In this document: piece after piece, positions 13,873 through 56,505 of the stretch
Position numbering within the stretch: position 1 is the first letter of the stretch
How the letters are laid out: each line of letters starts with the position of its first letter
Assembly: GCA_051652765.1 (NCBI GenBank)
Contig: JBOFUV010000035.1
Location: 1 to 64,000, forward strand
DNA: 64,000 bases
Source of the DNA: Microcoleaceae cyanobacterium
GTDB taxonomy: Bacteria; Cyanobacteriota; Cyanobacteriia; Cyanobacteriales; Microcoleaceae
Reading direction: 5' to 3'
Program-made: the position numbers and the translations under genes
Notes under the pieces: generated by a model
What the model was told of the DNA's origin: nothing
What the model saw: the letters and a program-made list of their open reading frames with translations, nothing else
Database searches by the model: none

Positions 13873-13920
13873 ATTTTCCTTTGATAAAACTTAATTGTAA
13901 AAATCAGAAAAACTTGGATT

Positions 13921-38185: not shown

Positions 38186-41032
38186 TCAGTCTTGGGCAAC
38201 TGCAATTTTTTCTAAACAGGACTCAAGTAGCCTCCGAATTTTTTTGATCTGAAAATCATGAGCTAGATTTTGCATATCTTGAATGAAGAGTAGTGAGTCT
38301 TGATCAGAAGGCGTAAGTTCGCTGAGAGCCTTTTCTAAACTAACAATATGACCCCGCTTCACTAGATCGAGTAATGTTTCGAGTTGCTCCTTTGAAAAGT
38401 AAGCGGTTCGGGCTGGGGTTTCTATTAATCGTTTTGCAGAATATCTATCGTTCTGTTTTGCTGATCTGATCTGATCAGGTGGTTCAACTCGAATCCAATC
38501 TAATCGTAAATGCTGTTGCAGGCAAGCAAAAAGTTCATCAACCTGAATGGGCTTGGAAAGGAATGCATCGGCTCCAGCAACAAAGCACTTCTGCTGTTCA
38601 GCGTCAAAAACTCGACCGGATAAAACAGCGATTTTGATATTTTTCAGTAAGGGAGACTGGCGCATTTTGCGGATCATTTCCAACCCATTTAGCAGTGGCA
38701 TTGTAATATTTGTAATGACTAAATCAGGTTGAATTTGAGTCGCCATGTCCAAACCTTCCTGACCATTGGTGACTTCAACACAGAGGAATCCAATGGGTTT
38801 AAGTAAGTCAATGATCACGGATCGGTTCTCAGGCTGATCATCGACAATCAAAATTTTAGGTATGCTTCCTTTGATCCCAACAATTTCCCTTGAAGTCACC
38901 TGAAATTTTTTATTTTGCTGCCGTTCTAGAGAAACTTCTAGACATAAGTCAAACCAAAATCGGCTGCCTTTTCCAGCATGACTTTCGACATTTAGATCAC
39001 TATTCATTAACTGTACAATTTTACGGCTAATGGCTAATCCTAACCCTGTTCCTTCAGACTTTCTCTGAACATCGCCAACCTGTTCAAACGGCAAGAAGAT
39101 TTTTTCGAGTTGTGCAGGTGTCATCCCAACTCCAGTATCTTCCACTTGGAATCGGATTCTCGCCACTGGATGCTCGGATTGGATGGCTAGAGCTTGTGTT
39201 ACAGAAGTATTGAGCAAAGTTGCTGGATGAGTTAAGACAGAATCTACCGGTTCATCTTCTAGCAGTTCTACTTTGAACGTAACGGTTCCATGATCCGTAA
39301 ACTTGGTGGCATTGCCGAGTAAGTTGATCAATACTTGCCGAAGCCGCTTTTCATCACTACCTATTCCTAAAGGCAAATTAGGATTGGCATCATAAATAAA
39401 ATCAATTCCTTTTTCATCAGCTCGAATTCGGCAAATTTCAACAACCCCTAGAAGAAAAGAGGAGAGATGAAAACTACTCAGCTCTAATTCCAGTTTATGA
39501 GCTTCAATTTTGGATAAATCGAGGAGGTCATTGATTAAGTTTAATAAATGGGAACCACACTGATAGATAATATTGACCCCATCTTTTTCTGAGACGAGTA
39601 ATGTTTGCGATCGCTGCAGGATTTGAGCGTATCCTAAAATCCCATTTAGGGGAGTTCGCAATTCATGACTCATGTTGGCAAGAAACTCACTTTTGGCCTG
39701 ATTTGCAACATCCGCAGCAATCCTAGCCTGTTCTAATTCCTGAGTTCGTTTTTGTACTTTGACCTCTAAAGTTTGGGAGTAATCTTTTAACTGGGCATTG
39801 GCTTGAATTAATTCCCACTGATGACGGGAATTGGTTGCCAAAATTGTAGAGCTGGTCAGGGCCGCCAAGGGAGAAATGACAGGAATCCACCACCCGTGCA
39901 AAAAAGCAACGTACCCGCAGGCCATCACAATACTTCCAGTCAACAAGAAGTTAAGCACCAACCCGGCAAAAAAGAGTCGCATCCCTGCCTGGGTTGTGCG
40001 AGGCAGTACCCAACTGAGGCTCGCCCCTGCCAATGCACCCGTGAGAATCCAGAGCCCCTTAGCCCACCAGGGCCAGGGTCTGAGCACACTACGTCCATCC
40101 AAAGCCGCACTCAACATCTGGCTAGCAACGTTGGCATGAACGACAATACCAGCCATTGTGTCAGAGGCGGTAGTTTTGTTATCAGAGTAAGGGGTTTCAA
40201 AGAAGTCATTGGTACTTTCAGCCGTTGAGCCGATCAAGACAATCCGATTCTGAACTTGTTCAAGAGAGAGCCGACCCGCAAGCACATCGATGATCGAAAC
40301 GGTTTCAAACTGCTGTTGGGAGCCATGATAGTTCAATAAAATCTGATATCCCCCCAAGTGAGCTTGTTCATGACCAAAATCACCAGACCGCAGAGGAACA
40401 AAAACAGCTTTCCCGAGGCGATAGGATTTTTGACTGGGATCGATCTCCTCTAGGGTGATTCCTGCCGCTTGAAGATAAATCAGGCTAAGCCGAACCCCCA
40501 GGGTGGGGATGATTGCTCCAGTACCATCTCCAGCCGTAATCAGGCTGCGGCGAACTTTGCCATCAGCATCTAGCAGTACATCCGATAGAGCCACTTGATC
40601 CCGTTGAGCCAGCATCGGATTGGGAGAGATCCGATTCCCAACAGCTTTCTGGATTCCAATTAAATTAGGAGTGGACTGGATGACCTCAAGCCATTCCTCA
40701 TGTCCGGGTTCAACGGGTAAGTTCCGGTAGATATCCAAACCAATCGCTCTGGGCTGATAGGTCTCCAACCGACGAACCACCTCGGCAATCAAGCCATCAC
40801 TCAGGGGCCATGTTCCCAGGGTGTTGATATCAGTATCGTCAATGGTGACAATTAGAATGCGACGTTCAATCGATCCTGCTGGCCGTAACCGAAAAAATAA
40901 ATCTAAAGTAGCCCACTCTAAAAGTTGAAATAGACCAACTGATGATCCTAGGATGACAAACGCAGCAACACTAGAAGAGATCGTGAATACAAAACGCCAC
41001 CGTCTGACCCATTGGTTGATGGAGATCCACAT
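38186..41032 (-). CDS. CHASE2-domain hybrid histidine kinase with C-terminal receiver-like domain
   Basis: CHASE2 + 3 TM, H-box [15 protein letters not shown]-box [21 protein letters not shown]; receiver ILIVDD...[11 protein letters not shown]...FLSKP. Confidence 0.93.
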
Positions 41033-41144
41033 GTAAGCCTCAATTTAACAAAGAGATTGAATGAGGAAAATTGAGGTAACTCTTCAAACAGGTTTTACAA
41101 ACGCTTTTGCTGCCCAAGGTCATCTAGCCCAGATTTATCGAGGG

Positions 41145-41858
41145 TTAATTAAGCACAGGTTGGCTGGCTAATGTTCCTAACCCAACCGAAGTCAGCTCTG
41201 TCTGCCATGCACGAACAACAGTTGGATCGTTAGGTTGAGCCTGTTTCAACTGAGCTAAAGATGCCATCATATCGTACCACAAGCCTGCCTGACCCAGGGC
41301 AGAAGCCTGTTCTAGAGACGGAGAAGCAGTCCAAGTCGGGTTTGTTGTCTCTCGGCGCTGAACCCATCCAGTAATGGTCGGGCTATCGGGCTCAAGCTGA
41401 CTTCCACAAATCAGGGCCAAAGACCACATATACTTCTTCCCAATTTCCAGAGGAGGAGCTTCCTGAGGAAATCTAATCTTGGCGACCCCCGCATGGGGAA
41501 CTGCAAACTGGGCTTGATAATAATGGTTGCCGTTCTCATCTTGCAAGCTAAAAAACACCTGCTTTACCGAAGACTGAGGAATGTAAACCAAGATGGCTGG
41601 GTGAGTCGCAACGGTCAACCCTATTTGAGTTGTGGGCAGCAAAGGAATAGCCGAGGGACTTCCTGCCGCATCAGAAAAGCAGGGATTATCTGTGCGGGTT
41701 CCTCCCCCTTTAGAGGTAATCGGAGCCTCATCACCGGGAGGCTGGAACATTTGAGCAAACCCTGGCTTGCCTGAAAAAGCGCTTACTCCTAGTCCTATTG
41801 CCAAGAAAGACAGGAAAAAATTCTGATTTGAAAAGAACTTGCTCATTGTACTCAGCAC
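41145..41858 (-). CDS. DUF928-family exported protein
   Basis: Signal peptide, PPGDEAPITSKGGGTR, GLTVATHPAILVYIP, LEIGKKYMWSLALIC, GWVQR and AGLWYD motifs. Confidence 0.88.
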   Translation of the reverse strand: MLSTMSKFFSNQNFFLSFLAIGLGVSAFSGKPGFAQMFQPPGDEAPITSKGGGTRTDNPCFSDAAGSPSAIPLLPTTQIGLTVATHPAILVYIPQSSVKQVFFSLQDENGNHYYQAQFAVPHAGVAKIRFPQEAPPLEIGKKYMWSLALICGSQLEPDSPTITGWVQRRETTNPTWTASPSLEQASALGQAGLWYDMMASLAQLKQAQPNDPTVVRAWQTELTSVGLGTLASQPVLN

Positions 41859-42319
41859 CCTATGATTTTTGAGACTTTTGTGGCTAATACTTGTGATTTA
41901 ACCTATAGTTTATTCGAGAAAATACGGAAGTGGTGTAAAGCTTTGGAAAATTTATTGCCAATGTTGTTAAAGCTTCTGTAAACCGTGATTTTACAAATAA
42001 AAATTGACTGAAAGACTCCCATAATCAGAAAACGTAGAAGATAGAAATGAGATGAATCCAGTGCATGACTCTACAGATTCACAATGCACATATCCTTGTA
42101 TCTCTTGTCGGAGAGGTGGCGCTAATGCAGGTCAGTTGCCTAGATTAGTATACATATTGTTTGAACAAATTTGATAAGACTCCTAGGCTTAGAGACAACA
42201 AAATATTGACCCTAGAATTTCACAATTAAACAGAATATTATCGCCTTACCCTACTTCTATTTAGATCAATTGTTAATCAATCATTTTTTCTCAAGGCAGA
42301 GGTATTTTGCAGTGAATTT

Positions 42320-44998
42320 CTACAACCAATTCCCGACTAAAACAAAGGGAGCCCAATACACAGGATGGCTATATTCTCCTCCGTTCAGCAATCCCAACTG
42401 AGCTTGGCGAAGCGCCTCTGCCTTCGTTATTCCCGGTTGACCCAGTTGCTTGTAGAACTCAACCATGAGTTTTGTTGTAGAATCGTCCCAAACAGCCCAA
42501 AGACTGGCAATGGTGCTCCGTGCCCCTGAACGGATTGCTATTCCTGCTAATCCTAAAGCAGCCCGTCGATCTCCCTGGGCAGTCTGACAAGCGCTCAACA
42601 CCAACAGGTCAACGGGGGTTTGATTGCCTGTTGATCGAGAACGCAACAGGGCATCAAAATCTTTAACATTGATTTTGCCGTCCCAGGTGAGGATAAAGGT
42701 CTTCTCTGCTACGCTGCTGAACTGACCATGGGTTGCCAAATGTAGGATGCGGGCTGGAGAAGTTTCGAGGGTCTCCTCTAGATTGGCAGTGGTAAAGGCT
42801 TGATTGAGAATGACTTGAGCCGGAACTTCGGCAGCAATCTGTTGCAGTTCTTGCTCAACCCCCGGTAGAGGTAAAAATCCCTGACGCGCTTCACTCAACC
42901 CTGCCGTAATCGCTTCATCCTTTGTTAATTCAGTCGGACGAGATTCAAGCAGTTGCAGACCTGGACTGAGGGCAACCCCATACTGCTCTAACAAATATTG
43001 TTGACCATCGTGTAGGGCCGCCATAGGGAGATTTCTTAACTCACTGTCAAGTACAAAAACCAGGGTTTTGACGTGAGATTGGACTAGGTCTGCTTGAACT
43101 GGACGGATTAACCAGTTATAGGCTTGTTGATAGAGTTTTAACCGTTGGTCTGGGCTGTAGGCTGGATGTAAAGATTGGCGCATTTTGCTCAAAATCGGAA
43201 TCAGCGTGTCTTGAGAGACAGAACTGGCATGGTGTTGCAAAGGCTTTCCCGGCAACGCCACAATCACTTCTAAGCGATCTGGCAGAATGATGGGATAAAT
43301 CACGGCTGCTGCCGGATCAACTTCATCAATCCGAGCAGGCTTCGCCTCCAAACAAGCCTCGCGGAAAAAGTTATCGAGTTCTGCAAGTTGTAACGCTTCA
43401 ATCACCGCTTGGGCTTGATTCAAATTGGCCTGAACACTCACAACCAAGCCCGATGTTTCCTGGAACGACGTTTCCTCAAGCAACACAGAGACAAACTCTC
43501 GATAAACGGGTTCAATGGTCTCAGTAAAGGAAAATTGAACGTCGGGGCTAACGGCAACAAGGTCATTGCGAAGGCCCTGTAGGGTCTCGAAAGCAACTTG
43601 ATAAGCTGCGATCGCCCCCTCTAGATCGCCTTTCTGTTTGAGCAATCGACCGAGTTGCCAGGATGCCTGGGCGGTTACTTCAGCGGCATTAGTAGCTTGA
43701 GCAAGCTGAAGAGCTTGTTCGGTCAGGGGTAAGGCTGCAGAAAATCGCCAGGTTTGTTCGTAGAGTTGGCCTAGTTGTGTCAGGACAGTTGCCTCGGCTT
43801 GGACATCCCCTAACGCTCTGGCTTGCTGAAGCGCCTGAGATAACGTATGGTCAGCAACAGACTCGGCCTCCCTCCGATCTTGGATGGGGCTCGAAGTGAT
43901 GCCATTCATGAGACTCTCTGCAAAGTTAACAGCCTTATAAATAGAGGTGCGACTGGGCGGTAATGCAGCTAGACCGGCGGCAATGCTTTGCACTAAGGAG
44001 GTTAGGTTGGGTTGCTGTTCTGGCTGGCCTTCAATCCCAGGGGGCTTAGCCTGCAACCGCAGTTGGTTCAATTGTATAGTTAGCTTTAGCTCTGCAGTGG
44101 GGGCGATCGCCGCTGCCTGTTGATAGTAGTCTAGGGCTTGTTCAGGGTGTTGTTGATCTTTGGCTAGATTTCCCAGGTTTAATAGAATTTCTGCTCGTTC
44201 TGAAGGGGCATTCAGGGTTTGAGCAACGGTTAAACTGCGGTGTAGAACCTGTTCAGCCTCTGCCAGATCTCCCAAAAGTTGTAAGGTCACGCCTAAACTC
44301 TGCAACCCTTTGACCTTGAGCAAAGAATCTTGCTGAGTTTGCAGGTCAGCTTGGATCACGGTCAATAGTTTACGGGAACGACGATAGAGTCCCAGAGCCC
44401 TCAGGGCTTGAGCCTGATTAATTTGGCTACCCAAAGTTCCAACTTTGTCTTCTGCCTGACGATAGGCTTGTTCTGCTTGTTCCCAGGATTCTAACGCTTC
44501 TGAGGTTTTACCTTGGGCCCGATAAAGCTGTCCTTGGGTGGTTAGGGCCTGGGCCAACAGGTTAATCTCGCCTCGATATTGGGGCTGATTCAAAATCCCT
44601 AAACTTTTTGTCATTACAGTCTCAGCAGCGTTCCACTCTCCCAAGGCTTGATGAACCAGGGACAAATAGCTCCAGGCCCAAGCCTGACCCACGGCATCTC
44701 CTTCACGCTCAAACGCTTGAATGGCCTGCTGCCAAGCTACTTTTGCCTCAGAAAGCCGTCCGGCAGTATAGAGTTGGCGGCCTTGTTCCAAGAGTTGTGT
44801 TGCAGTCTGAGTCTGAGTCTGAGTTGCAGTGGCGACAGTCTGGACTGCTGGAGATGCTGAGGGAACGGTAGCGTCTCCAGGAGCAGTTGTTATCACCCAC
44901 AAAAGAGTCACAACACTCAACGCAATTCCCCAGCAACCTCGCCTGAATGAGTGTTTAGCCCGTCTCATAGAGTGTTGGATATAGAAGGTCGGATACAC
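42320..44998 (-). CDS. Exported TPR-repeat + CHAT (caspase-like cysteine protease) protein; likely start ATG 44968
   Basis: Signal-peptide-like N-terminus, TPR helices, LQLAELDNFFREAC, catalytic HLATHGQFS / VLSACQTA, C-terminal HPVYWAPFVLVGNWL. Confidence 0.93.
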   Translation of the reverse strand: MYPTFYIQHSMRRAKHSFRRGCWGIALSVVTLLWVITTAPGDATVPSASPAVQTVATATQTQTQTATQLLEQGRQLYTAGRLSEAKVAWQQAIQAFEREGDAVGQAWAWSYLSLVHQALGEWNAAETVMTKSLGILNQPQYRGEINLLAQALTTQGQLYRAQGKTSEALESWEQAEQAYRQAEDKVGTLGSQINQAQALRALGLYRRSRKLLTVIQADLQTQQDSLLKVKGLQSLGVTLQLLGDLAEAEQVLHRSLTVAQTLNAPSERAEILLNLGNLAKDQQHPEQALDYYQQAAAIAPTAELKLTIQLNQLRLQAKPPGIEGQPEQQPNLTSLVQSIAAGLAALPPSRTSIYKAVNFAESLMNGITSSPIQDRREAESVADHTLSQALQQARALGDVQAEATVLTQLGQLYEQTWRFSAALPLTEQALQLAQATNAAEVTAQASWQLGRLLKQKGDLEGAIAAYQVAFETLQGLRNDLVAVSPDVQFSFTETIEPVYREFVSVLLEETSFQETSGLVVSVQANLNQAQAVIEALQLAELDNFFREACLEAKPARIDEVDPAAAVIYPIILPDRLEVIVALPGKPLQHHASSVSQDTLIPILSKMRQSLHPAYSPDQRLKLYQQAYNWLIRPVQADLVQSHVKTLVFVLDSELRNLPMAALHDGQQYLLEQYGVALSPGLQLLESRPTELTKDEAITAGLSEARQGFLPLPGVEQELQQIAAEVPAQVILNQAFTTANLEETLETSPARILHLATHGQFSSVAEKTFILTWDGKINVKDFDALLRSRSTGNQTPVDLLVLSACQTAQGDRRAALGLAGIAIRSGARSTIASLWAVWDDSTTKLMVEFYKQLGQPGITKAEALRQAQLGLLNGGEYSHPVYWAPFVLVGNWL

Positions 44999-45023
44999 TG
45001 TTGAATCAACTGTTGGATCTGAA

Positions 45024-48000
45024 TCATGGATGATAACAATACAGCGGTTGTAGGATAGGAGTGCGGGGGTTGGTTTGATTGGGAAGGTGAGCCACCAGCT
45101 CTAGATTTCCCTGTTTGTTAACAATCCAAGCTTGAGCCTCAACGGCTACGGCTTGAACCAATGTACTCGCAATCTTACCCCTTGCTGCATCCGATGTCTC
45201 AGCTTGTTCAACCTGAGCAGGTTGTGCGTCCCGCAAATCCGTCCGCAAGTCTGACCAAACGACTTCTCCCCCAAGGGTTTGGCGAGGGTCTTCGGGTAAT
45301 CCTCCTCGTCCCGTGACGACGAAGGTGTTTTGTTGCTCAGAGGCGCAGCCCGTTACCACTAGTTGAGAAACATCGGTCACTTGTTCGGGGAGTTGAGTGG
45401 TAGCAACCTGACGATTTGTGTCTGGATTGGAAACATTAACGACCCCATCTACTCCAAATTGGGAGCTGGCTGTGATTTCACTGCCATCAACCAAGAAAAT
45501 TCCCTGGGTAGAAATGGTGATATTTCCCCCAGGACCCAGCACTGCATTCGCTCGGATATCGCTATTGCCTTGGGCAACCACAAAATCACTGTTAATTCTG
45601 ACATCGCCTCCCCCGCCCGTGCTGTCTGACACGCTAGTACTGACTAAGCTGTTATTGTTCAGGCCGAGGAAATCAGTGGTTAAGTTGATATCGCCGCCTC
45701 CAGATTCCATCGATGTGGCAGTTACTTCCCCTTGGTTCATCTGGATTGTGCGAGCGCTGATGTTAATATTGCCTGCTTCACCTAAACCCTGGCTATTGGT
45801 TGAAACTTGACCGTTGTTCGTCAGGTTCAAGCTGCTGTTAATCTCCAGACCAACGCTTCCCCCTGCTCCTGTTGAACCTATACGAGCTTCACTTAATACA
45901 CCACCTCCACCGTCAAGATTTGCAGTATTCGCAAAAATGGTGATATTCCCAGCTCTGCCAGAGCTTTCAGTGTTTGTATTGACGACACCACCATTAACTA
46001 GATTCAGAGTATTGGTGTTGAGGGTAATTTGGCCACCTTGCCCAGAGGACTGGGAGTCTGTGCCGCTAAAGATCCCACTCGCTGTTGCTGGACTTGATCC
46101 GTCAATGGTAATCGTGTTGGCGTTGACAATAGCATTTCCAGCATCACCGACTCCAAGGGTACTTGTACTTAGAATCCCTCCGTTGATTAAGTTCAGAATG
46201 TTGGTGGCTAAGTTCAGGTTTCCCCCGGCGCCAGTTGCAGAGGCTAGGGATTCACTCAGAATGCGACTTGACTGGTCAACCCTTGTAGAAGTCGTATTGA
46301 TGTATAGGTTTCCGGCATTCCCTGAGGACGCTGTACTGGTGCTGAGCAGCCCGCCGCTCAATAGGTTTAACGTCAGAGCATTGAGGTTAATATTTCCACT
46401 ATTTCCTGTCGCTCCAACTAGGGATTCGCTCAGAACCCGCCCTCCCGTGTTCACATTTACAGAATTAGCGTTGAGGTCAATCAGCCCTGCACTTCCCGAT
46501 GCCAAGGTACTGGTGCTGAGGGATGCACCAGAATCAACCGTTAGATTACTGGTTCTCAACATAACATTGCCACCCTTTCCCGAGCCACGAGTTTCGGCTG
46601 AAATTTGGCTGTTGGTAGTGGCGATCGCCCCATCCCGAATGTTTAGGGTGATGTTGCCGCCCCCGCCGTTAAAGGTTGTGGCGGTAATGCTACTCGGATT
46701 GTTGCGGTCAGTGGTTCCCAAAAGGACTGTATTCGCCTGAATAGTAACACTCCCAGCTTGCCCTTCTCCGGGAGGACGACTGGTATCCAGGCTAGGAAAG
46801 TTACTCGCGTTGATTGTGGCTCCATCCTGAATCGATAACTGATTAGCATTCACAGTAATCGTGCCACCATTTCCAGTGCTTTCAATCGCATTGGAGAATA
46901 GACCACTGCGGCCAAACTCTGAACTGCCCCTGAGGTCAACTTGAGCTGCGCGAACAGTTAAGTCTCCTCCCTGGCCCGTACTTGCTGTTCCTACCCCAAT
47001 CTGTCCCCCATCCCGGACGCTCAGTTGACCTGCATTCAGTGTTAAGTTTCCTCCATTCCCCGTAGTCGCGCCAGACTCTACGGTTGTCAGTAAAGCACTC
47101 CCTCCCCGTTGTCCCACCCCAATAACCTCAATGATGGCGGCATCAATGGTCAAATTTCCCGCATCTCCATTTCCCAAAGTAAGAGCTGTAGCTTGGGCTC
47201 CATCCGCTGCTCGGAAGCGAATCGCTTCGATTGTGACATTGCCCCCTTGGCCAGTCGCTCCAGGCAGAACATTAGAGAATAGACCGCTTTGAACTCCACC
47301 ACTAGGAGAAGTTCCCAAAAGTTCTACATCAGTTGCTTGAACAGTCAAATTGCCCCCGTTTCCTGACCCTAATGTTCCCGTAAAGACCAGTGCTCCTCCA
47401 GAGATTGAGAGGCGATCAGCCTGAATCTGCACATCTCCACCTTGACCCAATGCAAGAGTAGAAGTCGATATTCCACTGGAACCTAGCCCAGCAGTTCCGC
47501 CACTGATATTGATCTCTCCAGCCCGAATAGAGATATTGCCTGCATCTCCAGAACCAAATGTGTCGCCCTGTAACCGACCTCCCCCAGCAAGAATTAAACT
47601 TCCTGTGTCAATCTGAATGTTTCCACCTTGTCCTATGGCTCCAGGATCAACATTCGTAGATAGCAAGCTAGGAAACGTAACGGTCGGAGTTGTTCCTGCC
47701 ACTGCAAACACCTCAGATGCCTTGATATTAATATCTCCACCCGTAGTAGTTCCCAGAGTATTTGCTAAAACGGCAGAGCCACCACTGACGACAACTTGTC
47801 TGCCCTGAATTTGAACTCTGCCGCCGCCATTGCCGCTGGTATCGATTGAGGCTGTGTCAGAGAGGAGAATATCTTGAAAGGTTTGCACTCCCGCATAATT
47901 AAATGACCACCCTGAATCTGTATCTGCAGGAACTAAACTGACAGTGCCGCTGCTAACACTGCCCAGAACAACCTGTCCATCTTCAGCCGTCAAGTTTCCT

Positions 48001-48692
48001 CCTGGTAAAAGGATGTTACCTCCAACCAAAGCCAGGGTCTGACCGGGCGGAACTTGCAAACCAAGAGGTCGATCGTCTCGAACAATTGTTCCGACATCAA
48101 AGTTAAAGGTCAGATTGTTCCCAGGCCCCTGAACGGTAATGTCACCCGGAATTGCCCCATATTGCAAGCCAATCGGAATATTAACACTCAGTAACGGAGA
48201 AGCCTGAGGATTGATCGCGCTAAATTCAAGGCCGTCAGCAAACTGCATCTCCTCGGCAGTGCTGCCAACAAAAGATCCCCCAATTTGCAAAGCTGCATTG
48301 GGGCCAAAGATAATTCCATTGGGATTGAGTAAAAACAGATTGGCTGTACCGTTAGCACGAATCAAACCATCAATACTTGAAACTGAGCCTCCGGTAACTC
48401 GACTGATGATATTAGCAATTGAACCCGCATTATTAAAAAAAGCAGTTGTTCCAGTGGGGACGGAAAACTGCTCAAAACTATGGAATAAATTACTGCCTGC
48501 AGTCGTACCGCCTACAATCTCGTTGAGGCTACCACTAGGAACAATGACCGAATGATTCGGTAGGGTGGAGTCAGGAACGATTTGAGCAATAGCAGGGCTG
48601 ACCCAGAAGTAACTACTCAGGATCAAAACCCTCACATTGCTGATTTGCAAGACGTTCCGTAGGAACAATTGGAAGTTAACCCTAGAAGTCAT
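45024..48692 (-). CDS. Filamentous haemagglutinin-like TpsA exoprotein
   Basis: Signal peptide ..PAIAQIVPD, TPS domain NLFHSFEQFS...NIISRVTGG...LLNPNGIIFG, Gly/Asn/Thr beta-helix repeats, C-terminal C..TFVVTGRGGLP...EAQAW segment. Confidence 0.93.
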   Translation of the reverse strand: MTSRVNFQLFLRNVLQISNVRVLILSSYFWVSPAIAQIVPDSTLPNHSVIVPSGSLNEIVGGTTAGSNLFHSFEQFSVPTGTTAFFNNAGSIANIISRVTGGSVSSIDGLIRANGTANLFLLNPNGIIFGPNAALQIGGSFVGSTAEEMQFADGLEFSAINPQASPLLSVNIPIGLQYGAIPGDITVQGPGNNLTFNFDVGTIVRDDRPLGLQVPPGQTLALVGGNILLPGGNLTAEDGQVVLGSVSSGTVSLVPADTDSGWSFNYAGVQTFQDILLSDTASIDTSGNGGGRVQIQGRQVVVSGGSAVLANTLGTTTGGDINIKASEVFAVAGTTPTVTFPSLLSTNVDPGAIGQGGNIQIDTGSLILAGGGRLQGDTFGSGDAGNISIRAGEINISGGTAGLGSSGISTSTLALGQGGDVQIQADRLSISGGALVFTGTLGSGNGGNLTVQATDVELLGTSPSGGVQSGLFSNVLPGATGQGGNVTIEAIRFRAADGAQATALTLGNGDAGNLTIDAAIIEVIGVGQRGGSALLTTVESGATTGNGGNLTLNAGQLSVRDGGQIGVGTASTGQGGDLTVRAAQVDLRGSSEFGRSGLFSNAIESTGNGGTITVNANQLSIQDGATINASNFPSLDTSRPPGEGQAGSVTIQANTVLLGTTDRNNPSSITATTFNGGGGNITLNIRDGAIATTNSQISAETRGSGKGGNVMLRTSNLTVDSGASLSTSTLASGSAGLIDLNANSVNVNTGGRVLSESLVGATGNSGNINLNALTLNLLSGGLLSTSTASSGNAGNLYINTTSTRVDQSSRILSESLASATGAGGNLNLATNILNLINGGILSTSTLGVGDAGNAIVNANTITIDGSSPATASGIFSGTDSQSSGQGGQITLNTNTLNLVNGGVVNTNTESSGRAGNITIFANTANLDGGGGVLSEARIGSTGAGGSVGLEINSSLNLTNNGQVSTNSQGLGEAGNINISARTIQMNQGEVTATSMESGGGDINLTTDFLGLNNNSLVSTSVSDSTGGGGDVRINSDFVVAQGNSDIRANAVLGPGGNITISTQGIFLVDGSEITASSQFGVDGVVNVSNPDTNRQVATTQLPEQVTDVSQLVVTGCASEQQNTFVVTGRGGLPEDPRQTLGGEVVWSDLRTDLRDAQPAQVEQAETSDAARGKIASTLVQAVAVEAQAWIVNKQGNLELVAHLPNQTNPRTPILQPLYCYHP

Positions 48693-48792: not shown

Positions 48793-49083
48793 TTAGGAGT
48801 CTGCACGCCAAGGGCCACCACCGCTACAACCAGGCATCCAGGGAAATAGCAAGCAGAGATTGGCCATGGTATCACTGTCTTCAACCATAGACTTCGCAGT
48901 GTCAGAGGTCGTTTGATCGGCTTCTAGGGAAGTTGGATTTAGGGCTGCTGCCTGAATTGAAACTGAACCGACGACAACTACAAGTCCCATCAGGGTTCTA
49001 GAAGCTGCTTGGGTGAATTGCTTGAATGTTGTTTGAGATTGCATAGAGTTCATTCGAGAAATGCCTTGTTTGGTAATCATCAT
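48793..49083 (-). CDS. Small secreted peptide carrying a CLLFPWMPGC motif; mini-paralog of the adjacent metalloprotease (start may be 49053)
   Basis: Hydrophobic signal-like LMGLVVVVGSVSIQA. Its C-terminal 12 codons match the neighbour at 11/12 residues, with six synonymous codon differences. Confidence 0.8.
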   Translation of the reverse strand: MMITKQGISRMNSMQSQTTFKQFTQAASRTLMGLVVVVGSVSIQAAALNPTSLEADQTTSDTAKSMVEDSDTMANLCLLFPWMPGCSGGGPWRADS

Positions 49084-49513: not shown

Positions 49514-51001
49514 CTAGTGGTTCCGAGAGCGCTTTCCTCCAGCAATTAAACTCAAAGCCCCAAATCCGAGTAATCCCACTACAATTGTCGGCTCAGGCAC
49601 TTTCTCGGGTTCCGTAACTAGAATCACTTCCTGAGCTAATAGATTCGCTTGCAGCAACTCTTGCCAACCACCAGTACTACCACTACATCCAGGTCTCCAG
49701 GGGAACAGTAGACAGTGGTTGTAGACTTCGCTGTCTTGCACCATTGCTTCGACTCGATCGTCAACGCCGTTACCATTGGTGTCAATCGTTTCAACCATAG
49801 CTTCAGCGGCCTGCTGTTCAGCTTGGGCAAAGAGAGTAACCAGGTCATAGGCCATCTCACCCGCACTAATCCCATCTCGCATTCTCTGGGTAGTATTCCA
49901 ACCAATCACGTCAAATGCCACCAGATCAAGGGCCGTAATACTACGGGTCATGCCATAGCCAATGGCTGGGTCCATGACTCCAATGGTTTTGTTAGTGCCC
50001 AAATATTCCTGCTGTTTCCAGTGACTGGCCTGATAGCCATCGGCATCTTCCCCTTTGCCTGTGGAGAATTCAGCGACCCGACATTGGCTCGGGGCAAGAG
50101 AAACTCCCTGGCAACTGCTAAATGAACTGTAGGCTTGCAGACCATCTGTGGCAACGGCTTGAGTGCCATTAATTGAAAGAAACTTGGCTTCACCGTTGGT
50201 GGTCAGATCAGCGACTCCTTCCTCTAAACTCGTTTCAGAGTAGCGGAACAAGTCTAGAGTTTGGGCAGATTTTTCCTGGCCTGAATTGCTGGCAAAATCA
50301 TCAACAGAGCTGACAAAACCCAGTTGGTGACCGATTTCATGGAGAGCAACACTGAGGAAATCAATTTCGTCACCCCCAGGGCTATGGAAGAAGTCATAGC
50401 TCCAGTTAAAGTTCTGATTCATGCCAATGTAGCCATCAAACCCACTGGCATTTGCATCGATCAAACCTAATGCCTTGGCGTTGGCGTAGGTCATATTGAG
50501 TTCGCTAGAAGATGTTTCAGCGTCATCCTCTTCACCCTCATCTGACAAGAAATGATAGCTCTCGTCGTCGGTGCTCATGTTTGCGTGAGCAGTTCGATCT
50601 CGACCAGAAGTAATATCTGAATTGAGCGCCGAATCGAAATCTTGGAAGTTAACTCCAGTTAGCATTGCCGGTAGCGAACCACCCAACACGTTTTCCGGGA
50701 GTAACTCATCACCCACTAAGTCAATATAAAGATTGACGGTGACTTCATCAACGAGATAGTCTTCCCAGATGGCGCTAGCCAATTCAAAAGCGACTTTCTG
50801 TTCATCCGTAACGCCTGTGCTGTAGGTCGCTTGGATATCTAATGCCTGAGCCGGGACTGAACCCAGGGCAACGACCATCCACCCTAGAAGGGCTTTCGGA
50901 GCAACCCGTGCCAGGTACTGAATCAGTCCTTGGGCTTGAGTAGAGGGGTTGCACCCAGATTGACAATAGATCTTACTATTCATTGTTGCTATTTGAGTCA
51001 A
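49514..51001 (-). CDS. Secreted zinc metalloprotease with PEP-CTERM anchor (NF038122-like family)
   Basis: Signal peptide ..GSVPAQA, ANAKALGL, VALHEIGHQLGFVS (HEXXH), LDLFRYS, QASHW, FDVIGW; C-terminal VPEPT + TM + KRSRNH. Confidence 0.88.
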   Translation of the reverse strand: MTQIATMNSKIYCQSGCNPSTQAQGLIQYLARVAPKALLGWMVVALGSVPAQALDIQATYSTGVTDEQKVAFELASAIWEDYLVDEVTVNLYIDLVGDELLPENVLGGSLPAMLTGVNFQDFDSALNSDITSGRDRTAHANMSTDDESYHFLSDEGEEDDAETSSSELNMTYANAKALGLIDANASGFDGYIGMNQNFNWSYDFFHSPGGDEIDFLSVALHEIGHQLGFVSSVDDFASNSGQEKSAQTLDLFRYSETSLEEGVADLTTNGEAKFLSINGTQAVATDGLQAYSSFSSCQGVSLAPSQCRVAEFSTGKGEDADGYQASHWKQQEYLGTNKTIGVMDPAIGYGMTRSITALDLVAFDVIGWNTTQRMRDGISAGEMAYDLVTLFAQAEQQAAEAMVETIDTNGNGVDDRVEAMVQDSEVYNHCLLFPWRPGCSGSTGGWQELLQANLLAQEVILVTEPEKVPEPTIVVGLLGFGALSLIAGGKRSRNH

Positions 51002-51315: not shown

Positions 51316-51331
51316 TCAGTAGGATTACGGA
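51316..51331. promoter_or_regulatory. Palindromic site TCAGTA-GGAT-TACGGA upstream of the metalloprotease gene
   Basis: One mismatch to TCCGTA-N4-TACGGA. Confidence 0.5.
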
Positions 51332-51420
51332 GATAAAAGGGCGGGTTCAGCTTAGATAATCGATCAATTTTTCACGGGTTATTCACAATTAATCTAGTCT
51401 TCTAACTTATCTTGCAACTC

Positions 51421-51519
51421 GTCACAAAGTATTCACAAGTCATCTACAAAATATTCATATAACATTCACAAAATGGTCACAAAACGGTCACAAAACGTGT
51501 AGAAAATGTTCATGAGCTT
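51421..51519. repeat. Nine degenerate 11-bp direct repeats (consensus about TTCACAAAATG)
   Basis: gtcacaaagta ttcacaagtca tctacaaaata ttcatataaca ttcacaaaatg gtcacaaaacg gtcacaaaacg tgtagaaaatg ttcatgagctt. Confidence 0.75.
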
Positions 51520-51551
51520 GGTCATCTGTGTAGAATTCGGGCTTTAAGTCG

Positions 51552-54089
51552 TCAATTCTTAGTTAATTTTTGCTGGAGAAACCTCGTTGCAGCGTCTTGA
51601 GGTAAAGGCTTGGAGAAGAAATATCCCTGTCCATATTCACAGCTTAATGCTTTCAAGGTTTGTTTCTGGGCTGCTGTTTCTATGCCTTCTGCGACAACAG
51701 ATATGCCCAGATTATGGGCTAGAATCACAATTGCTTTGACAATTTCTTTACTAACTTGGACTTCTTCCATACGGTTAACAAAAGAACGGTCAATTTTTAA
51801 GGTGTCGATGGGAAAGCAATACAGATAACTTAGGGAAGAATAGCCAATCCCAAAGTCATCTAAGCTGAGTTGCACCCCGAGGGATTTTAAGCGATTGAGA
51901 ATAGCGATCGCCTCTTCCACATCTGTCATAATTGCACTTTCTGTAATTTCCAGCTTGACACAAGCGCAGTCCACCTGACTTTCCACCAAGATAGTTTCAA
52001 AGTGTTCTACCAGATCAGGCTGATCAAATTGATGACTAGATAGGTTAATGCTCATGACCAGTGGCATCGGGAAAGCAAACTGTTGATTCCAGGCTTGAAT
52101 TTGACAACAGGCTTCCCGCAAAATCCAATGCCCCAAAGGAATAATTAACCCAGTTTCCTCTGCTATTGAGATGAATTGATCCGGCATAATCAAGCCATTT
52201 TGAGGAGAATACCATCGGATAAGGGCTTCAAACCCAATAATTCTCTCGGTCTGAAGACATAAAATCGGTTGGTAATAGAGTTGAAACTCCTGATTTTTAA
52301 TCGCTTGACGCAAGTTGGTTTCAGTTTCCAATCGCTGTTTGGCCTGCAACCCCATCCGTTTAGCAAACACTTGATGTTGAGCTTTGCCGAGAACTTTGGC
52401 ATGATACATGGCTGTTTGAGCATCCTGTAAAGGATCTTCAGCCTGGATCAAGTCTTCAAATTGATTGTAGGCAATGCCAATGCTCACCGTTGAGTAAATG
52501 TCGTGCCCACTAATCTGAAAAGGTTGAGTCAACTGCTTTTGAATGTGGTCGGCCATCTCTTTAGCCTCCCCAAACTGTTTGAGCGCAGGCAGCAAGATTG
52601 CAAATTCATCTCCACCCACCCGAGCCAACCGTGCATCAGGGCGCAAACAACTCTTGAGGCGACGACTGGCGGCGATCAGTAACCGATCCCCAATAGGATG
52701 CCCCAAGCCCTGATTAATCATCCGAAATCGATCTAAATCGAGAAATAAAATCGCAAACAGGGGGGGCTGAGGTTGACGAATATAACCCAGTTGCCCCAAG
52801 TGTTGGATAAATAAACGACGATTGGGCAACCCGGTTAACGCATCGTAGAAAATATTGTGCAGGGATTTGTAGGCGAGAACAATAGTCATGGCTGTTAATA
52901 AACCCAAGGCAGGAGCCACGAAAGGAATCCATCCTGCCTGACAAAAGGTCACAAAACAGATTATCCAAAGCCCAGTAAAAGCGGCGATCGCCCCAATTCC
53001 CAACCCAAGCGGATGGTGCAACCGCCACACTAGCAACCCCCCGATCAAAGACCATAGCCACAGCCACAGGACTTCAACCCACTCCTCCCAAAACCAGAAA
53101 AGAGGCCGATCATCCAGAACCACACCCAGAATTTGACTCACCATCTGAGCATGAATCAGAACCCCTGGCATCTGATGATTCTCTGTTTTCGTGGCGCTGA
53201 ATGGGGTGGGGAAGAGATCTCTAAGGCTAGGGGCTGTTGTTCCAATTAAAACCACTCTGTCTCGAACCTGGGCTGAATCAACTCGACCTTGGAGAACATC
53301 AGTCAAAGTGACTCGTTCAGCAATCGTTTCCGAGGGATAATTGATTAGACTTTGCCATCCCCGAGCTTCTGACGGAGGGAGTTGATATCCACCAGAAGTT
53401 TCTGTCAGCCGAGGAAAGACCGTTTCTCCAATTTGTAACTCATCCCGGTGCACCTGAAACTTAAGACTTTGATCAGAAAGATAGCGTAAACTCAGTCGAA
53501 GGGAGAAAGAGTAGAGTTTTTCTGAGTTGGATTCGGCATATAGTAAACTGCGTCGAATCGTATTGTCAGTATCGCTAATCAGATCACTAAAGCCAACTCG
53601 CTCTGGAGGGATATTAGCGGGAGGAGGAACGATTCCGTGAAGCGTGATCGCGACGATATTATCTGCTTTCAATACCTGGGATAGCTGTTCGCTACCCGGA
53701 GGTTGGGGTACGTCGCGATAGATATCTAAACCAATGACTTTGGGTTGATATTTGTTCAGATTTTCAAGGGTCTGAGCAATCACTTGATCGGATAGAGGCC
53801 AATGACCCTGCTGTCGAATGTCTTGTTCAGTAATTTCAACAATTAGGATGCGAGGATCAATGGTTTGATTTGCTTTCAAACGAATCATTTGATCAAAAGA
53901 AGCAAGCTCTAAACTTTGAAATTCCCTTGTGAATTTTATAGCAGTTAAAAATCCTGTTGCCAACAGACTGGCGAAAATTATAGTCGTAATATGAAGAGAT
54001 GAAGATCGATATGAAAGCTTTTTTTTGACCTTTTTGTTGCTAGAGGTTAACAATAGGGAACGAGTTTTTTGTAAAAGCTTCACAAACAT
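51552..54089 (-). CDS. CHASE2-GGDEF-EAL c-di-GMP signalling membrane protein
   Basis: CHASE2 (IGLDIYRD, MPGVLIHAQMVSQIL) + 3 TM; DALTGLPNR, LARVGGDEF, FEALIRW and LDDFGIGYSSL are all intact. Confidence 0.95.
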   Translation of the reverse strand: MFVKLLQKTRSLLLTSSNKKVKKKLSYRSSSLHITTIIFASLLATGFLTAIKFTREFQSLELASFDQMIRLKANQTIDPRILIVEITEQDIRQQGHWPLSDQVIAQTLENLNKYQPKVIGLDIYRDVPQPPGSEQLSQVLKADNIVAITLHGIVPPPANIPPERVGFSDLISDTDNTIRRSLLYAESNSEKLYSFSLRLSLRYLSDQSLKFQVHRDELQIGETVFPRLTETSGGYQLPPSEARGWQSLINYPSETIAERVTLTDVLQGRVDSAQVRDRVVLIGTTAPSLRDLFPTPFSATKTENHQMPGVLIHAQMVSQILGVVLDDRPLFWFWEEWVEVLWLWLWSLIGGLLVWRLHHPLGLGIGAIAAFTGLWIICFVTFCQAGWIPFVAPALGLLTAMTIVLAYKSLHNIFYDALTGLPNRRLFIQHLGQLGYIRQPQPPLFAILFLDLDRFRMINQGLGHPIGDRLLIAASRRLKSCLRPDARLARVGGDEFAILLPALKQFGEAKEMADHIQKQLTQPFQISGHDIYSTVSIGIAYNQFEDLIQAEDPLQDAQTAMYHAKVLGKAQHQVFAKRMGLQAKQRLETETNLRQAIKNQEFQLYYQPILCLQTERIIGFEALIRWYSPQNGLIMPDQFISIAEETGLIIPLGHWILREACCQIQAWNQQFAFPMPLVMSINLSSHQFDQPDLVEHFETILVESQVDCACVKLEITESAIMTDVEEAIAILNRLKSLGVQLSLDDFGIGYSSLSYLYCFPIDTLKIDRSFVNRMEEVQVSKEIVKAIVILAHNLGISVVAEGIETAAQKQTLKALSCEYGQGYFFSKPLPQDAATRFLQQKLTKN

Positions 54090-54136
54090 TTGAGGTTATT
54101 AAAGGTTTTGTAAAAATTACTAGCTTTTGATAACAA

Positions 54137-54152
54137 TCCGTGAATTTACCGA
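54137..54152. promoter_or_regulatory. Palindromic site TCCGTG-AATT-TACCGA in the divergent promoter
   Basis: Two mismatches to TCCGTA-N4-TACGGA. Confidence 0.45.
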
Positions 54153-54231
54153 GCTTGATTCTCTAGTTTAATCTCTAGAATAAGTGAAGTGCAAAACCGC
54201 GATTTACACCAGGGCTGATTAAGAGCTTGCT

Positions 54232-54459
54232 ATGTTATTTGAAACCACACCCCGTAAAGCACTCATTTTAGTTTGCTTTGCCTCGCTCCTGAATGGTCTC
54301 ATTTCCATCTACCCACAATTGGCTTCGGCTAATAGTTCAAGTCCTAGTAGTGCTACGGGCTTGCCTGGACGTCGGGAATCTGGTGGAACAAGAGTTAAAA
54401 CAACTTCTGCTATTTTAGCGGAGCACCGATTGGCTCTTGAGCAAACCGTTCTTCCCTAA
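54232..54459 (+). CDS. Small secreted peptide with GLPGRRESGGTR motif resembling the DUF928 N-terminal motif
   Basis: ATG start, hydrophobic h-region, ASA cleavage site, Ser-rich linker, then PGRRxxGGTR; lies directly upstream of the TpsB gene. Confidence 0.7.
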   Translation: MLFETTPRKALILVCFASLLNGLISIYPQLASANSSSPSSATGLPGRRESGGTRVKTTSAILAEHRLALEQTVLP

Positions 54460-54651
54460 GCTTAACATCACCAAGATGTAGCTTCATCAGCGCCCTTCTC
54501 GATGTGAGAATCTCAGTTTCTCCTAAAATTTGTCAGATTCTCCAACGTTGGGGAAGCTCTATAAATCTGCAAAAAGAGGGAACATCAGGTGAGTTTATGG
54601 AGAAAACTCCTATAATGTCTTTCCAGTGATTTTTATTACTAGGGCACAGAG

Positions 54652-56505
54652 ATGATCTTGGCAAACTGGAAATTTTACCTGCCCTGGCATCTAGCCTTGC
54701 AGAAATTGACAGGAACATTTAACCTGACTTCTCTGGGCATTATTGCTCCTGCGCTTCTTGTTGTTCCCGGCCAATCCATTTCACTGCCTTTAGTTAAAGA
54801 CATTTTAGTTAAAGATCGGGTTGAAAATAGTTTGGTTAAAGCCAATCTCCTGTCTGATCTCCTGTTAGAATCTCAGCCTGAACAATCCGTTCAGCTTGCG
54901 CCCCAGCCTCCCTCTCTCTCTCCTCTGCCGGAAATTGAACCTTCCCTGCCACCTCCTCCACCTGAACCGTTGATTCAACCTCAGTCTTCGCCTCAACCCC
55001 AGCAAATTCCGGGAACTATTCCACAAACAACAGTTGTCCAGAAATTTGAGGTGATTGGCAGTACCGTTTTCAGTCCAGATGACTTTGCTGCGATTACCCA
55101 ACCCTTCACCAATCGCCCCATTTCTTTACTGGATCTGTATCAGGTTCGATCTGCGATCACTCAACTTTACGTGGAACAGGGCTATATCAACTCTGGGGCA
55201 TTCATTCCCCCCCAAGAACTGACCCAGGGCCTGGTTAGAATTCAAGTCATTGAAGGCGGTTTAGAAGCCATTAACGTTTCTGGGACTCGGCGATTGCGGC
55301 CCAGTTATATTCGGAGTCGTTTAGCTTTAGCAACCACTCAGCCGCTTAACGTTAGCCGCTTGTTGGAAGCCCTACAACTCCTCCAACTTGATCCCTTGAT
55401 TGAAACTATCTCCAGTGAACTCTCTGCCAGCCCCCGTCAAGGCTTGAGTATTTTGGATATTACTGTTGTGGAAGCAGATTCCTTTGAATTTAGGCTCTTT
55501 GCAGACAATCAACGAACCCCTAGCGTGGGTAGCTTTCGGCGGGGTGTGGGCTTCACCGAGGCGAATTTACTGGGGTTTGGGGACAGTCTTAGCTTTGACT
55601 ATGGGAATACCGATGGCAGTAATAGCTTTGATTTGAATTATACAGTTCCATTCAATGCCCGCAACGGCACCCTCAGTGCCAGCGTAGGTCTTGGCCCTAG
55701 TGAGGTGATTTCTCGCCCGTTCAATGAACTGGACATCACATCGGACTCGCGCTACTACGAACTCACCCTGCGCCAGCCGATGATTCAAAGACCCACTCAA
55801 GAATTTACGGTGGGGTTGACCGGATCTCATCAATCCAGTGAAACTGAACTTTTAGATACCCCGTTTCCCATTGCTGCAGGTGCTGATGATCAGGGACGCA
55901 CCAAAGTGTCCGCGATTCGATTCTTTCAGGAGTGGGTCAATCGGGATTCTCAGTCGGTTCTGGCTTTACGATCGCAATTCAGTCTTGGTATTGGTGCGTT
56001 TGACGCAACGATTAACGATGGAGACATCCCCGATAGTCGCTTTTTTACCTGGCGATTGCAGGGACAATGGGTACGCCTATTGGCCGAAGACACCCTGTTC
56101 CTCCTGCGGGGGGATCTACAACTGGCCAGTGAACCGTTGTTGGCCCTAGAACAGTTTCGACTTGGGGGATTAGATAGTGTCCGAGGATATCCCCGAGATA
56201 CGTTGTTGATTGATAATGGCGTGTTTGTGTCAGCAGAAGTCCGGTTGCCGATCGCGCGGATTCCAGAGTGGGACGCTATTCTTCATCTCACTCCTTTTGT
56301 TGAATATGGTCAAGGCTGGAATGATTCTGGACTTGATCCTGAGCCGGATGAGTTGGGCTCTGTGGGTCTCGGGATACAGTGGCAACAGGGCGATAGTCTG
56401 AGTATTCGAGCTGGCATCGGAATTCCCTGGAATAGTATTGATTCTCCTGATAGAAGTTGGCTCGAAGATCGAATTTATTTTTCAGTGATTTTTACCCCGT
56501 TTTAG
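54652..56505 (+). CDS. ShlB/FhaC/HecB-family TpsB outer-membrane transporter
   Basis: POTRA (FEVIGSTVF...ITQLYVEQGYINSGAFIP...IEG), barrel with SVRGYP (VRGY loop 6), C-terminal Phe. Start codon uncertain. Confidence 0.93.
   Translation: MILANWKFYLPWHLALQKLTGTFNLTSLGIIAPALLVVPGQSISLPLVKDILVKDRVENSLVKANLLSDLLLESQPEQSVQLAPQPPSLSPLPEIEPSLPPPPPEPLIQPQSSPQPQQIPGTIPQTTVVQKFEVIGSTVFSPDDFAAITQPFTNRPISLLDLYQVRSAITQLYVEQGYINSGAFIPPQELTQGLVRIQVIEGGLEAINVSGTRRLRPSYIRSRLALATTQPLNVSRLLEALQLLQLDPLIETISSELSASPRQGLSILDITVVEADSFEFRLFADNQRTPSVGSFRRGVGFTEANLLGFGDSLSFDYGNTDGSNSFDLNYTVPFNARNGTLSASVGLGPSEVISRPFNELDITSDSRYYELTLRQPMIQRPTQEFTVGLTGSHQSSETELLDTPFPIAAGADDQGRTKVSAIRFFQEWVNRDSQSVLALRSQFSLGIGAFDATINDGDIPDSRFFTWRLQGQWVRLLAEDTLFLLRGDLQLASEPLLALEQFRLGGLDSVRGYPRDTLLIDNGVFVSAEVRLPIARIPEWDAILHLTPFVEYGQGWNDSGLDPEPDELGSVGLGIQWQQGDSLSIRAGIGIPWNSIDSPDRSWLEDRIYFSVIFTPF

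Follow-up and report, generated by a model that had tools for sequence, protein, structure and literature searches.

Within a 64,000-nucleotide (nt) stretch of a Microcoleaceae cyanobacterium genome (contig JBOFUV010000035.1; this whole stretch is here called the window), we examined a cluster at positions 38186..56505 that encodes two CHASE2 receptors, a DUF928 protein, a CHAT protease, a two-partner secretion (TPS) pair and two small open reading frames (ORFs). Our main new result is that the smaller ORF, of 75 amino acids (aa), is, by sequence comparison, a DUF928 protein minus its body: a signal-like N-terminus followed by GLPGRRESGGTR. We give a probability of roughly 0.5 to the reading that its Arg-terminated motif is a ligand of CHASE2, released from DUF928 by the CHAT protease, which is predicted to be exported. 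The ligand of CHASE2 is stated as unknown in a study of a cyanobacterial CHASE2 receptor (PMC10581220; this and the other cited papers are used here for the parts of their text that were available). The nine genes of the cluster are as follows.

38186..41032, minus strand: CHASE2 hybrid histidine kinase (CHASE2-HisKA-HATPase-REC), 948 aa; from Pfam and motifs.
41145..41858, minus strand: DUF928 protein, 237 aa, with a hydrophobic N-terminus, the tail PITSKGGGTR, a Cys and the DUF928 body; Pfam E value 1e-50.
42320..44998, minus strand: caspase-like protease with tetratricopeptide repeats (TPR-CHAT), 892 aa, with a hydrophobic N-terminus, His757, Cys804 and a conserved Asp838; from Pfam, alignment and fold match.
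45024..48692, minus strand: TpsA exoprotein, 1222 aa, with a TPS domain and a C-terminal Cys...TGRGGLP region; from Pfam, NCBIfam and motif.
48793..49083, minus strand: 96-aa ORF (about 86 aa from the third Met), with a hydrophobic N-terminus and a copy of the metalloprotease cassette (CLLFPWxPGCSG); from alignment and synteny.
49514..51001, minus strand: zinc metalloprotease of the NF038122 family, 495 aa, with a hypervariable cassette before a PEP-CTERM-like tail; from NCBIfam and a cassette survey.
51552..54089, minus strand: CHASE2-GGDEF-EAL receptor, 845 aa, catalytic motifs intact; from Pfam and motifs.
54232..54459, plus strand: body-less DUF928-tail peptide, 75 aa, with a signal-like N-terminus, GLPGRRESGGTR (ending at 54393) and a 21-aa unconserved tail; from homology and selection.
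54652..56505, plus strand: TpsB outer-membrane translocator (POTRA_2, ShlB), 617 aa; from Pfam.

The arrangement proposed in an initial annotation of this DNA, with seven co-oriented genes facing away from the 75-aa gene and TpsB, holds in coordinates, strands and domains, all of the latter scoring above the curated cut-offs of Pfam and NCBIfam. Pfam E values are 2e-75 and 2e-65 for CHASE2, 7e-61 for CHAT, 3e-67 for TPS and 3e-27 for ShlB, and the NCBIfam value for the metalloprotease (NF038122) is 7e-72. The cluster proteins are predicted to be exported solely from the hydrophobic stretch found at each of the nine N-termini (mean hydropathy, 1.7 to 2.4). The TPS-domain exoprotein and the POTRA/ShlB translocator together constitute a type Vb two-partner secretion pair, although tpsA and tpsB lie 6 kb apart and are divergent.

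The best local match of the mature part of the 75-aa ORF within its own genome, among ORFs of at least 100 aa, is a DUF928 protein. The ORF itself has no match to the Pfam DUF928 model (PF06051) and resembles only the N-terminal tail outside that model; its own N-terminus has a hydrophobic stretch and an AxA-like site. A search among 61 relatives found matches in eight genomes, its own included. In two genomes of the same genus (G001 and G002), short ORFs of 59 and 75 aa occupy the same slot between CHASE2-GGDEF-EAL and TpsB, and in a further genome (G045) an 88-aa ORF lies behind a CHASE2-GGDEF-EAL receptor gene. The remaining matches are three full DUF928 proteins, two of them divergent from a CHASE2 gene, and one noise hit. 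Elsewhere, the divergent slot beside a CHASE2 receptor is filled by full DUF928 proteins with the same tail. The position of the short orthologs next to CHASE2-GGDEF-EAL genes in the same-genus genomes and in G045 is one of the reasons for regarding the motif as a candidate CHASE2 ligand.

A second reason lies in how the motif is conserved. Between the window and G001, the 12-codon core has changed at 10 of 11.5 synonymous and 2 of 24.5 nonsynonymous sites, and the next ten codons have changed at 18 of 22.7 nonsynonymous sites. Over 30 short forms, the ratio of nonsynonymous to synonymous change per site (pN/pS) rises from 0.19 in the core to 0.79 on its upstream and 0.86 on its downstream side, the low core value being partly circular because these forms were chosen by their motif. 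Since both the 75-aa and the 96-aa ORFs have a syntenic ortholog with synonymous divergence, we consider both to be genes. Two further small ORFs of the window's genome have hydrophobic stretches and RRPGGSR or EGGSR motifs (G000:C100:9915-10352 and G000:C115:62879-63052), the former following a gene whose end is helix-turn-helix-like.

The motif extends far beyond this genus. A profile built from seven short forms and four DUF928 N-termini was searched in 401 genomes of the cyanobacterial class and matched 155 of them. Among 150 matches listed, with 135 more beyond these, 25 lie in frames of at most 130 aa. We inspected the 24 short matches other than that of the window, together with two intermediate ones; all 24 are signal-like ORFs with the motif, and the two intermediates are broken DUF928 genes. 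Among the 24, two share the divergent arrangement of the window with a CHASE2-GGDEF-EAL gene, and two lie beside TpsA. Only 1 of 29 distinct short forms retains a remnant of the DUF928 body. The protein database holds 69 matching proteins of 21 to 121 aa, of which 68 have the motif, three resemble DUF928 fragments and four end at GGGTR. There was no significant Pfam or NCBIfam match for the nine short forms scanned or for the 75-aa ORF of the window, and, as judged from these alignments, the 75-aa peptide is a member of an unnamed class-wide cyanobacterial family.

Conservation in this family stops at the Arg, and some natural copies stop there altogether. A DNA scan for the motif followed directly by TAA or TAG gave nine genome hits. 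Eight of these are ORFs of 44 to 85 aa that start with a hydrophobic stretch and have GGGTR as their last residues; seven come from genomes labelled as cyanobacteria and the eighth from an unclassified bacterium. One of these genes is divergent from a locus holding CHASE2 and DUF928. The ninth hit, from a verrucomicrobial sequence, has no signal and was set aside as chance-like, and the single metagenome hit duplicates one of the genome hits. The GGTR motif singled out in the initial annotation is in this respect more than had been claimed: it is a conserved core, it is found also in a stand-alone exported-type peptide, and natural versions end exactly at the Arg.

The window's genome contains one more ORF of this kind, a signal-like ORF of 71 aa that ends in PGRGGEGDTGSR-stop (GDTGSR-stop), 260 bp behind a CHASE2-GGDEF gene (G000:C3:31022-31237, equal to L226:3523-3738). 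A weak counterpart in G002 (E value 0.04) ends in GGGESGAGSR-stop behind a GGDEF gene, and a counterpart in G005 ends in SNGGGR-stop with no receptor within 3 kb. By its sequence, this ORF is a second peptide class; it has three members among the 61 relatives at an E value of 0.05 or better, and no convincing additional member was found in the 401 genomes.

Full DUF928 proteins carry the same element. The DUF928 gene of the window scores 172.5 bits against a Pfam cut-off of 26, and the tail motif precedes the Pfam domain in 127 of 145 DUF928 proteins, with a Cys within 10 residues after it in 121 of those 127. Taken over the class, comparison of these proteins establishes the motif as a conserved unit that is present with a DUF928 body, without one or on a barely recognizable one, and that sometimes ends the protein. 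That the Arg-terminated motif matters for function is well supported, and it is very probably a functional exported unit. With the truncation series, which runs from full DUF928 through a diverged body and no body to a stop after the Arg, the candidate ligand shrinks to a 12-mer, small enough to synthesize and test on a purified CHASE2 domain. In one DUF928 protein (L069:12566-13531), the tail TDTTGGGIRG stands in at least four tandem repeats, like a multi-copy precursor.

The third line of evidence is that the motif follows the presence of CHASE2 and CHAT. CHASE2 is present in 370 of the 401 sampled genomes; the motif occurs in 155 of these 370 and in 0 of the 31 CHASE2-negative genomes, 11 of the latter having been deduced from gaps in the genome numbering rather than listed directly. 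Within a family of small genomes (f29), the motif is found in 13 of 19 CHASE2-positive and 0 of 22 CHASE2-negative genomes (Fisher p about 1e-6), a comparison that, like the class-wide one, is not independent of kinship or genome size. All 13 motif-positive f29 genomes have a CHAT match, compared with 2 of 10 CHASE2-negative kin, both partial; overall, CHAT is matched in 24 of 25 motif-positive genomes tested. In 7 of 8 f29 loci fetched, CHAT, a protein with the GGTR tail and a CHASE2 cyclase occur together, with CHAT fused to TpsA in three and TpsB present in 6 of the 8. The f29 tail proteins are 200 to 240 aa long and have a nearly invariant tail of the FP(G/T)x(R)xGGGTRGEC type; none of seven bodies matches Pfam DUF928, and only faint links to it were seen (2 of 127 at an E value below 1e-3). 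By these presence patterns, streamlined genomes gain and lose the motif together with CHAT and CHASE2. Two loci, L326 (genome G190) and L328 (G155), retain TpsB, CHAT, the tail protein and the CHASE2 cyclase in genomes of 1.7 and 1.9 Mb, and each of these sets lies beside another protease gene (serralysin-like or calpain-like).

The initial annotation had proposed that the components co-occur beyond this genome, and they do: among 80 CHAT-anchored loci (the best 80 of 556 confirmed), DUF928 is present in 63, CHASE2 in 53, TpsA in 47, the metalloprotease in 6 and TpsB in 4. The 43 of these loci that span at least 20 kb have DUF928 in 39, CHASE2 in 32, TpsA in 31, the metalloprotease in 5 and TpsB in 3. 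The TpsA/CHAT/DUF928/CHASE2 core is widespread, and the metalloprotease, which had been counted as a system component, is accessory.

The proposed cut after Arg draws on the CHAT protein. The dyad claimed for it is intact, His757 and Cys804 being invariant in alignments, and the CHAT domain follows TPR repeats, as expected of a TPR-CHAT protease of clan CD. A model of the C-terminal 452 residues (mean predicted local distance difference test [pLDDT] score 70, low around the Cys loop) matches the folds of Csx29 (E value 3e-10), DdvA (2e-6) and separase (1e-4). Separase cuts after Arg through an Asp (Asp2070 in the human protein) 41 residues past its Cys, the Cys number being taken from a PDB title (PMC10317155). 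In 87 of 91 CHAT domains, the motif LWxVxD has an Asp lying 34 residues past the Cys (Asp838 in the window); judged by its similar spacing, it may be equivalent to the S1 Asp of separase. Because CHAT folds like separase and keeps this Asp, a cut after Arg is plausible. The residue at which SAVED-CHAT cleaves is not stated in the available text of bioRxiv 2023.06.23.546230.

In the mechanism that we propose, a 12-residue motif whose last residues are GG[T/S]R would bind CHASE2 receptors; the 75-aa gene encodes it by itself, DUF928 proteins carry it in their N-terminal part, and CHAT would expose it by cutting DUF928 after the Arg. Body-less copies would serve as a protease-independent or separately transcribed input, and differing tails would address differing receptors. 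Within the window, the target of the 75-aa peptide would be the CHASE2-GGDEF-EAL protein of the divergent gene (output, cyclic di-GMP [c-di-GMP]) and that of the DUF928 tail the hybrid kinase, with the metalloprotease and the 96-aa cassette copy forming an accessory layer. The parts of this scheme differ in strength. The motif probably binds CHASE2; that CHAT generates a free C-terminal Arg on the active form is an evenly balanced proposition; and control of CHAT activation by the state of the TpsA filament on its way through TpsB seems doubtful. The most general form is tentative, and we would bet slightly against it: CHASE2 would be a receptor for GG[T/S]R-COOH peptides cut from DUF928 pro-proteins by a filament-coupled exported caspase-like protease, complemented by ready-made agonists, uncleavable antagonists and an address code in the upstream residues. 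If true, the scheme would span genomes from 1.7-Mb streamlined ones to large ones with many receptors, with c-di-GMP, cyclic-nucleotide and kinase outputs, and it would give DUF928 a role and exported caspase-like proteases a substrate.

The 845-aa receptor has its CHASE2 domain at residues 55-332 (53094-53927 in the window), and its GGDEF, EAL and DDFG motifs are intact. A simple phosphorelay output, as first envisaged for the 948-aa kinase, is doubtful because its receiver (at about 38700 in the window) has Asn at what we take to be the canonical phosphoacceptor Asp position, as do both same-genus orthologs. Among 21 related kinases, Asp was scored in 11, with 9 not parsed. DUF928 is present in 34, and a true short form in one, of the 80 CHASE2 loci that are closest to the 845-aa receptor. 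Over 74 DUF928-CHASE2 pairs, RR-type tails concentrate in a single clade of receptors (22 of 29, versus 1 of 45). The CHASE2 fold, modelled with confidence, had no Foldseek match at an E value of 0.001 or better, and the best VIA Z was 4.8; PDB sequence searches with DUF928, CHASE2 and CHAT returned nothing of use other than TPRs and a weak SAVED-CHAT hit (E value 0.04), and scanning loci with the CHASE2 domain as a single sequence gave no confirmed hit.

Several observations weigh against a CHASE2 ligand freed by CHAT, beyond the dependence of the genome counts, those of f29 included, on kinship and genome size. Neither DUF928 nor peptide lies within 5 kb in 45 of the 80 related CHASE2 loci, 20 of the 24 class-sample peptides have no module gene in their flanks (up to about 6 kb per side), and just one of the eight motif-stop genes is close to a CHASE2 gene. 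The conservation boundary at the Arg is partly a matter of construction, because the search profile ends one residue past it. The correlation of tail with receptor over the 74 pairs (partial r 0.34) is matched by 2 of 16 control windows of the body. The residue after the Arg is G, D, N, S or T in 118 of 127 DUF928 proteins but usually bulky in the short forms (Trp in 36 of 68), so that one protease cutting both fits poorly; many of the Trp-type forms belong to one subfamily with its own conserved 38-residue extension. On the side of the protease, Asp838 falls in a low-confidence part of the CHAT model, craspases, which are TPR-CHAT proteins, cut after Met or Leu (PMC11506125), and a conserved G-R/K-GG-L/I-P site of TpsA (68 of 105) could be the CHAT substrate instead. 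Apart from these points, a 76-aa subfamily of GGTR peptides (L201-L205, L207, L209, L210, L215, L221, L222) has the conserved extension W..P....SAMAFASR..LP and mostly adjoins an FAD/NAD oxidoreductase gene, away from module genes.

An alternative is that the motif addresses CHAT rather than the receptor. It would then be a substrate or docking strand in DUF928, CHASE2 would read the released body, and the body-less peptides would be decoys or securin-like inhibitors that set the threshold of the protease. In its favour, correlation with the receptor is stronger for the DUF928 body (partial r 0.75) than for the tail (0.34), and the motif shares genomes with both CHAT and CHASE2. In addition, bulky residues follow the Arg in short forms, and separase is inhibited by securin acting as a pseudosubstrate (PMC10317155). 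The copies ending in the Arg, however, look like products and not substrates, the tail persists while the body diverges past Pfam detection, and the peptide adjoins CHASE2-GGDEF-EAL in all three genus genomes, with TpsA-CHAT on a separate contig in G001; we regard this alternative as unlikely. A scheme without ligand processing seems improbable. Here, intact DUF928 or peptide would be the CHASE2 partner via its tail, and CHAT would act downstream to cut or release TpsA, as LapG does on CdrA. In keeping with it, the CHAT gene is 25 bp from the TpsA gene in the window, the two are fused in several small genomes, TpsA keeps its G-R/K-GG-L/I-P site and 64 of 68 short forms run on past the Arg. Such a scheme would nevertheless leave unexplained why conservation ends at the Arg and why a Cys follows so regularly in DUF928 proteins, and the outputs at CHAT loci are mostly kinases or adenylate/guanylate cyclases, not LapD-like proteins.

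The remaining two alternatives concern the small ORFs alone. The short peptides might resemble PatX: after export and maturation they would return to the cell to act on a cytoplasmic regulator such as HetR, with no relation to CHASE2. Signal peptide, spacer and Arg/Gly motif form a shared layout (PMC12756182), and the nearest ESM Atlas clusters are PatX at 0.86, under the 0.9 threshold for a lead. Yet the motif follows CHASE2 presence in f29, the pentapeptide RG[S/T]GR is absent from the 75-aa ORF and from all 145 DUF928 N-termini, and the genome has PatX-like ORFs elsewhere; PatX identity was rejected, and a PatX-like route is very improbable. Those PatX-like ORFs are three small candidates that have hydrophobic N-termini and RG[S/T]GR (G000:C49:19501-19773, C28:51178-51339 and C61:41024-41236). 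The least credible alternative derives the small ORFs from DUF928 and metalloprotease genes in decay: broken DUF928 genes do exist (L219, L224, L225), but synonymous saturation with amino acid conservation, the lack of a body remnant in 28 of 29 short forms and synteny kept in several lineages all speak against decay.

Release of a CHASE2 ligand by CHAT, the reading that we prefer, would place the system among precursor peptides with extracytoplasmic maturation, and by analogy it would work like these; we found no described family that fits. PatX/PatP of Nostoc PCC 7120 is the nearest cyanobacterial analogue, with a small Sec-exported precursor whose Arg/Gly motif ends in Arg and which is matured by an extracytosolic peptidase (PMC12756182). 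The motifs differ (HRGTGR in PatX, GxPGRRxGGGTR here), as do the partners, PatX acting on cytoplasmic HetR and the genetic partners here being CHASE2, DUF928 and CHAT. DdvA of Myxococcus xanthus is, as predicted for the CHAT protein here, a periplasmic TPR-CHAT protein with a His-Cys dyad that is proposed to gate an envelope signal (PMC11506125). Unlike the CHAT protein here, which is separate and beside TpsA, DdvA is a membrane-bound anti-sigma factor proposed to cut itself, and the outputs here are c-di-GMP, cyclic nucleotide or kinase.

The CHASE2 cyclases CyaD1, CyaD2 and CyaK of Sinorhizobium meliloti answer a protein-type signal relayed by NsrA, an outer-membrane beta-barrel protein; no direct CHASE2 ligand, DUF928, CHAT or peptide gene is named in the available text (PMC13001267). 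Dgc2 of Leptolyngbya boryana is, like the receptor here, a cyanobacterial CHASE2-GGDEF protein and controls motility and biofilm, with no partner gene described and DUF928 not mentioned in the text at hand (PMC10581220). EACC2-caspase-CHASE2 proteins join a caspase-like domain and CHASE2 in one cyanobacterial system, the protease being fused N-terminally to the receptor there and a separate protein with a hydrophobic N-terminus here (PMC8195603). For CHASE2 and DUF928, the accessible part of PMC5587647 notes gene neighbourhood only. A literature search over titles and the beginnings of abstracts, with few subscription papers and no supplements (which could list these genes), found no description of the module or the peptide.

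In the LapD/LapG-CdrA/CdrB system of Pseudomonas, a TPS adhesin is combined with a GGDEF-EAL membrane protein and a cysteine protease of the periplasm. LapD, a catalytically degenerate protein, signals from the inside out, and LapG is a transglutaminase-like protease. In the window, by contrast, GGDEF and EAL are intact and the protease belongs to clan CD. The 845-aa receptor was rejected as a LapD, with its catalytic motifs unbroken and a score of 136.7 bits for the LapD model versus 1020.

The cluster is not the single nine-gene system that had first been proposed. Gaps of 461, 430 and 550 bp split the seven minus-strand genes into about four groups, and the 18-kb block is broken differently in the two same-genus genomes. 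In G002, the DUF928 and kinase pair sits on a separate contig; in G001, a TpsA-CHAT-DUF928-kinase block follows unrelated genes on a different contig from the TpsB-peptide-receptor-protease block. The 18-kb block is a lineage-specific merger. A promoter and terminator scan gave chance-level results (20 versus 23.9 and 15 versus 18.5). The genome as a whole has 11 CHASE2 genes and 10 DUF928 matches.

The two small peptides had been presented as equivalent dedicated parts, and here too the picture changes. The 75-aa peptide belongs to the class-wide family, whereas the 96-aa ORF was found in two genomes of one genus only and has its resemblance to the metalloprotease rather than to DUF928. Its alignment with the neighbouring protease covers residues 414-447 of the latter and scores 98 (best of 2000 shuffles, 54; next ORF, 51). 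Over the shared stretch, 7.5 of 8 synonymous and 1.5 of 28 nonsynonymous sites have changed; from this synonymous saturation with few nonsynonymous changes, the likeness appears to be maintained at the protein level. G002 has both genes, and both read CILFPW there, compared with CLLFPW in the window's genome. The metalloprotease itself (242.8 bits for NF038122 against a cut-off of 80) has a HEIGH zinc motif and a C-terminal VPEP followed by a hydrophobic tail. Among NF038122 proteases the cassette is hypervariable; of 76 such proteases, 41 have a TpsA in the locus.

A protein database search with the 96-aa ORF returned only itself, and a search in the 401 genomes returned its own protease cassette and six weak, uninspected matches (E values 0.02 to 0.04). 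A screen of 56 metalloprotease cassettes yielded no other stand-alone copy, at a sensitivity left unproven by the absence of the known G002 pair from its top rows. We tentatively suggest that the 96-aa peptide may copy a cassette presented or shed by the protease, serving as a decoy or as a mark of self-identity, although the odds are somewhat against it. Two other small ORFs lie upstream of TpsA genes. One, at L068:5336-5527 on the plus strand, is a signal-like ORF of 63 aa that ends in CSPWPDC and is reminiscent of the 96-aa peptide; the single protease fetched from G046 has no cassette. The other, in L031, is a 70-aa ORF with a double-glycine-type leader and a Gly/Ser-rich core starting with KWG, like some metalloprotease cassettes.

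Outside the cluster, the window encodes a CHAT-CHASE2 fusion without an output domain at 29334-31718 on the plus strand, 6.5 kb from the cluster, and a similar gene is found at G000:C97:8036-10843 in the same genome. The region from about 6000 to 15000 of the window has a low GC content (33 to 41%, versus about 47%), which suggests an acquired island.

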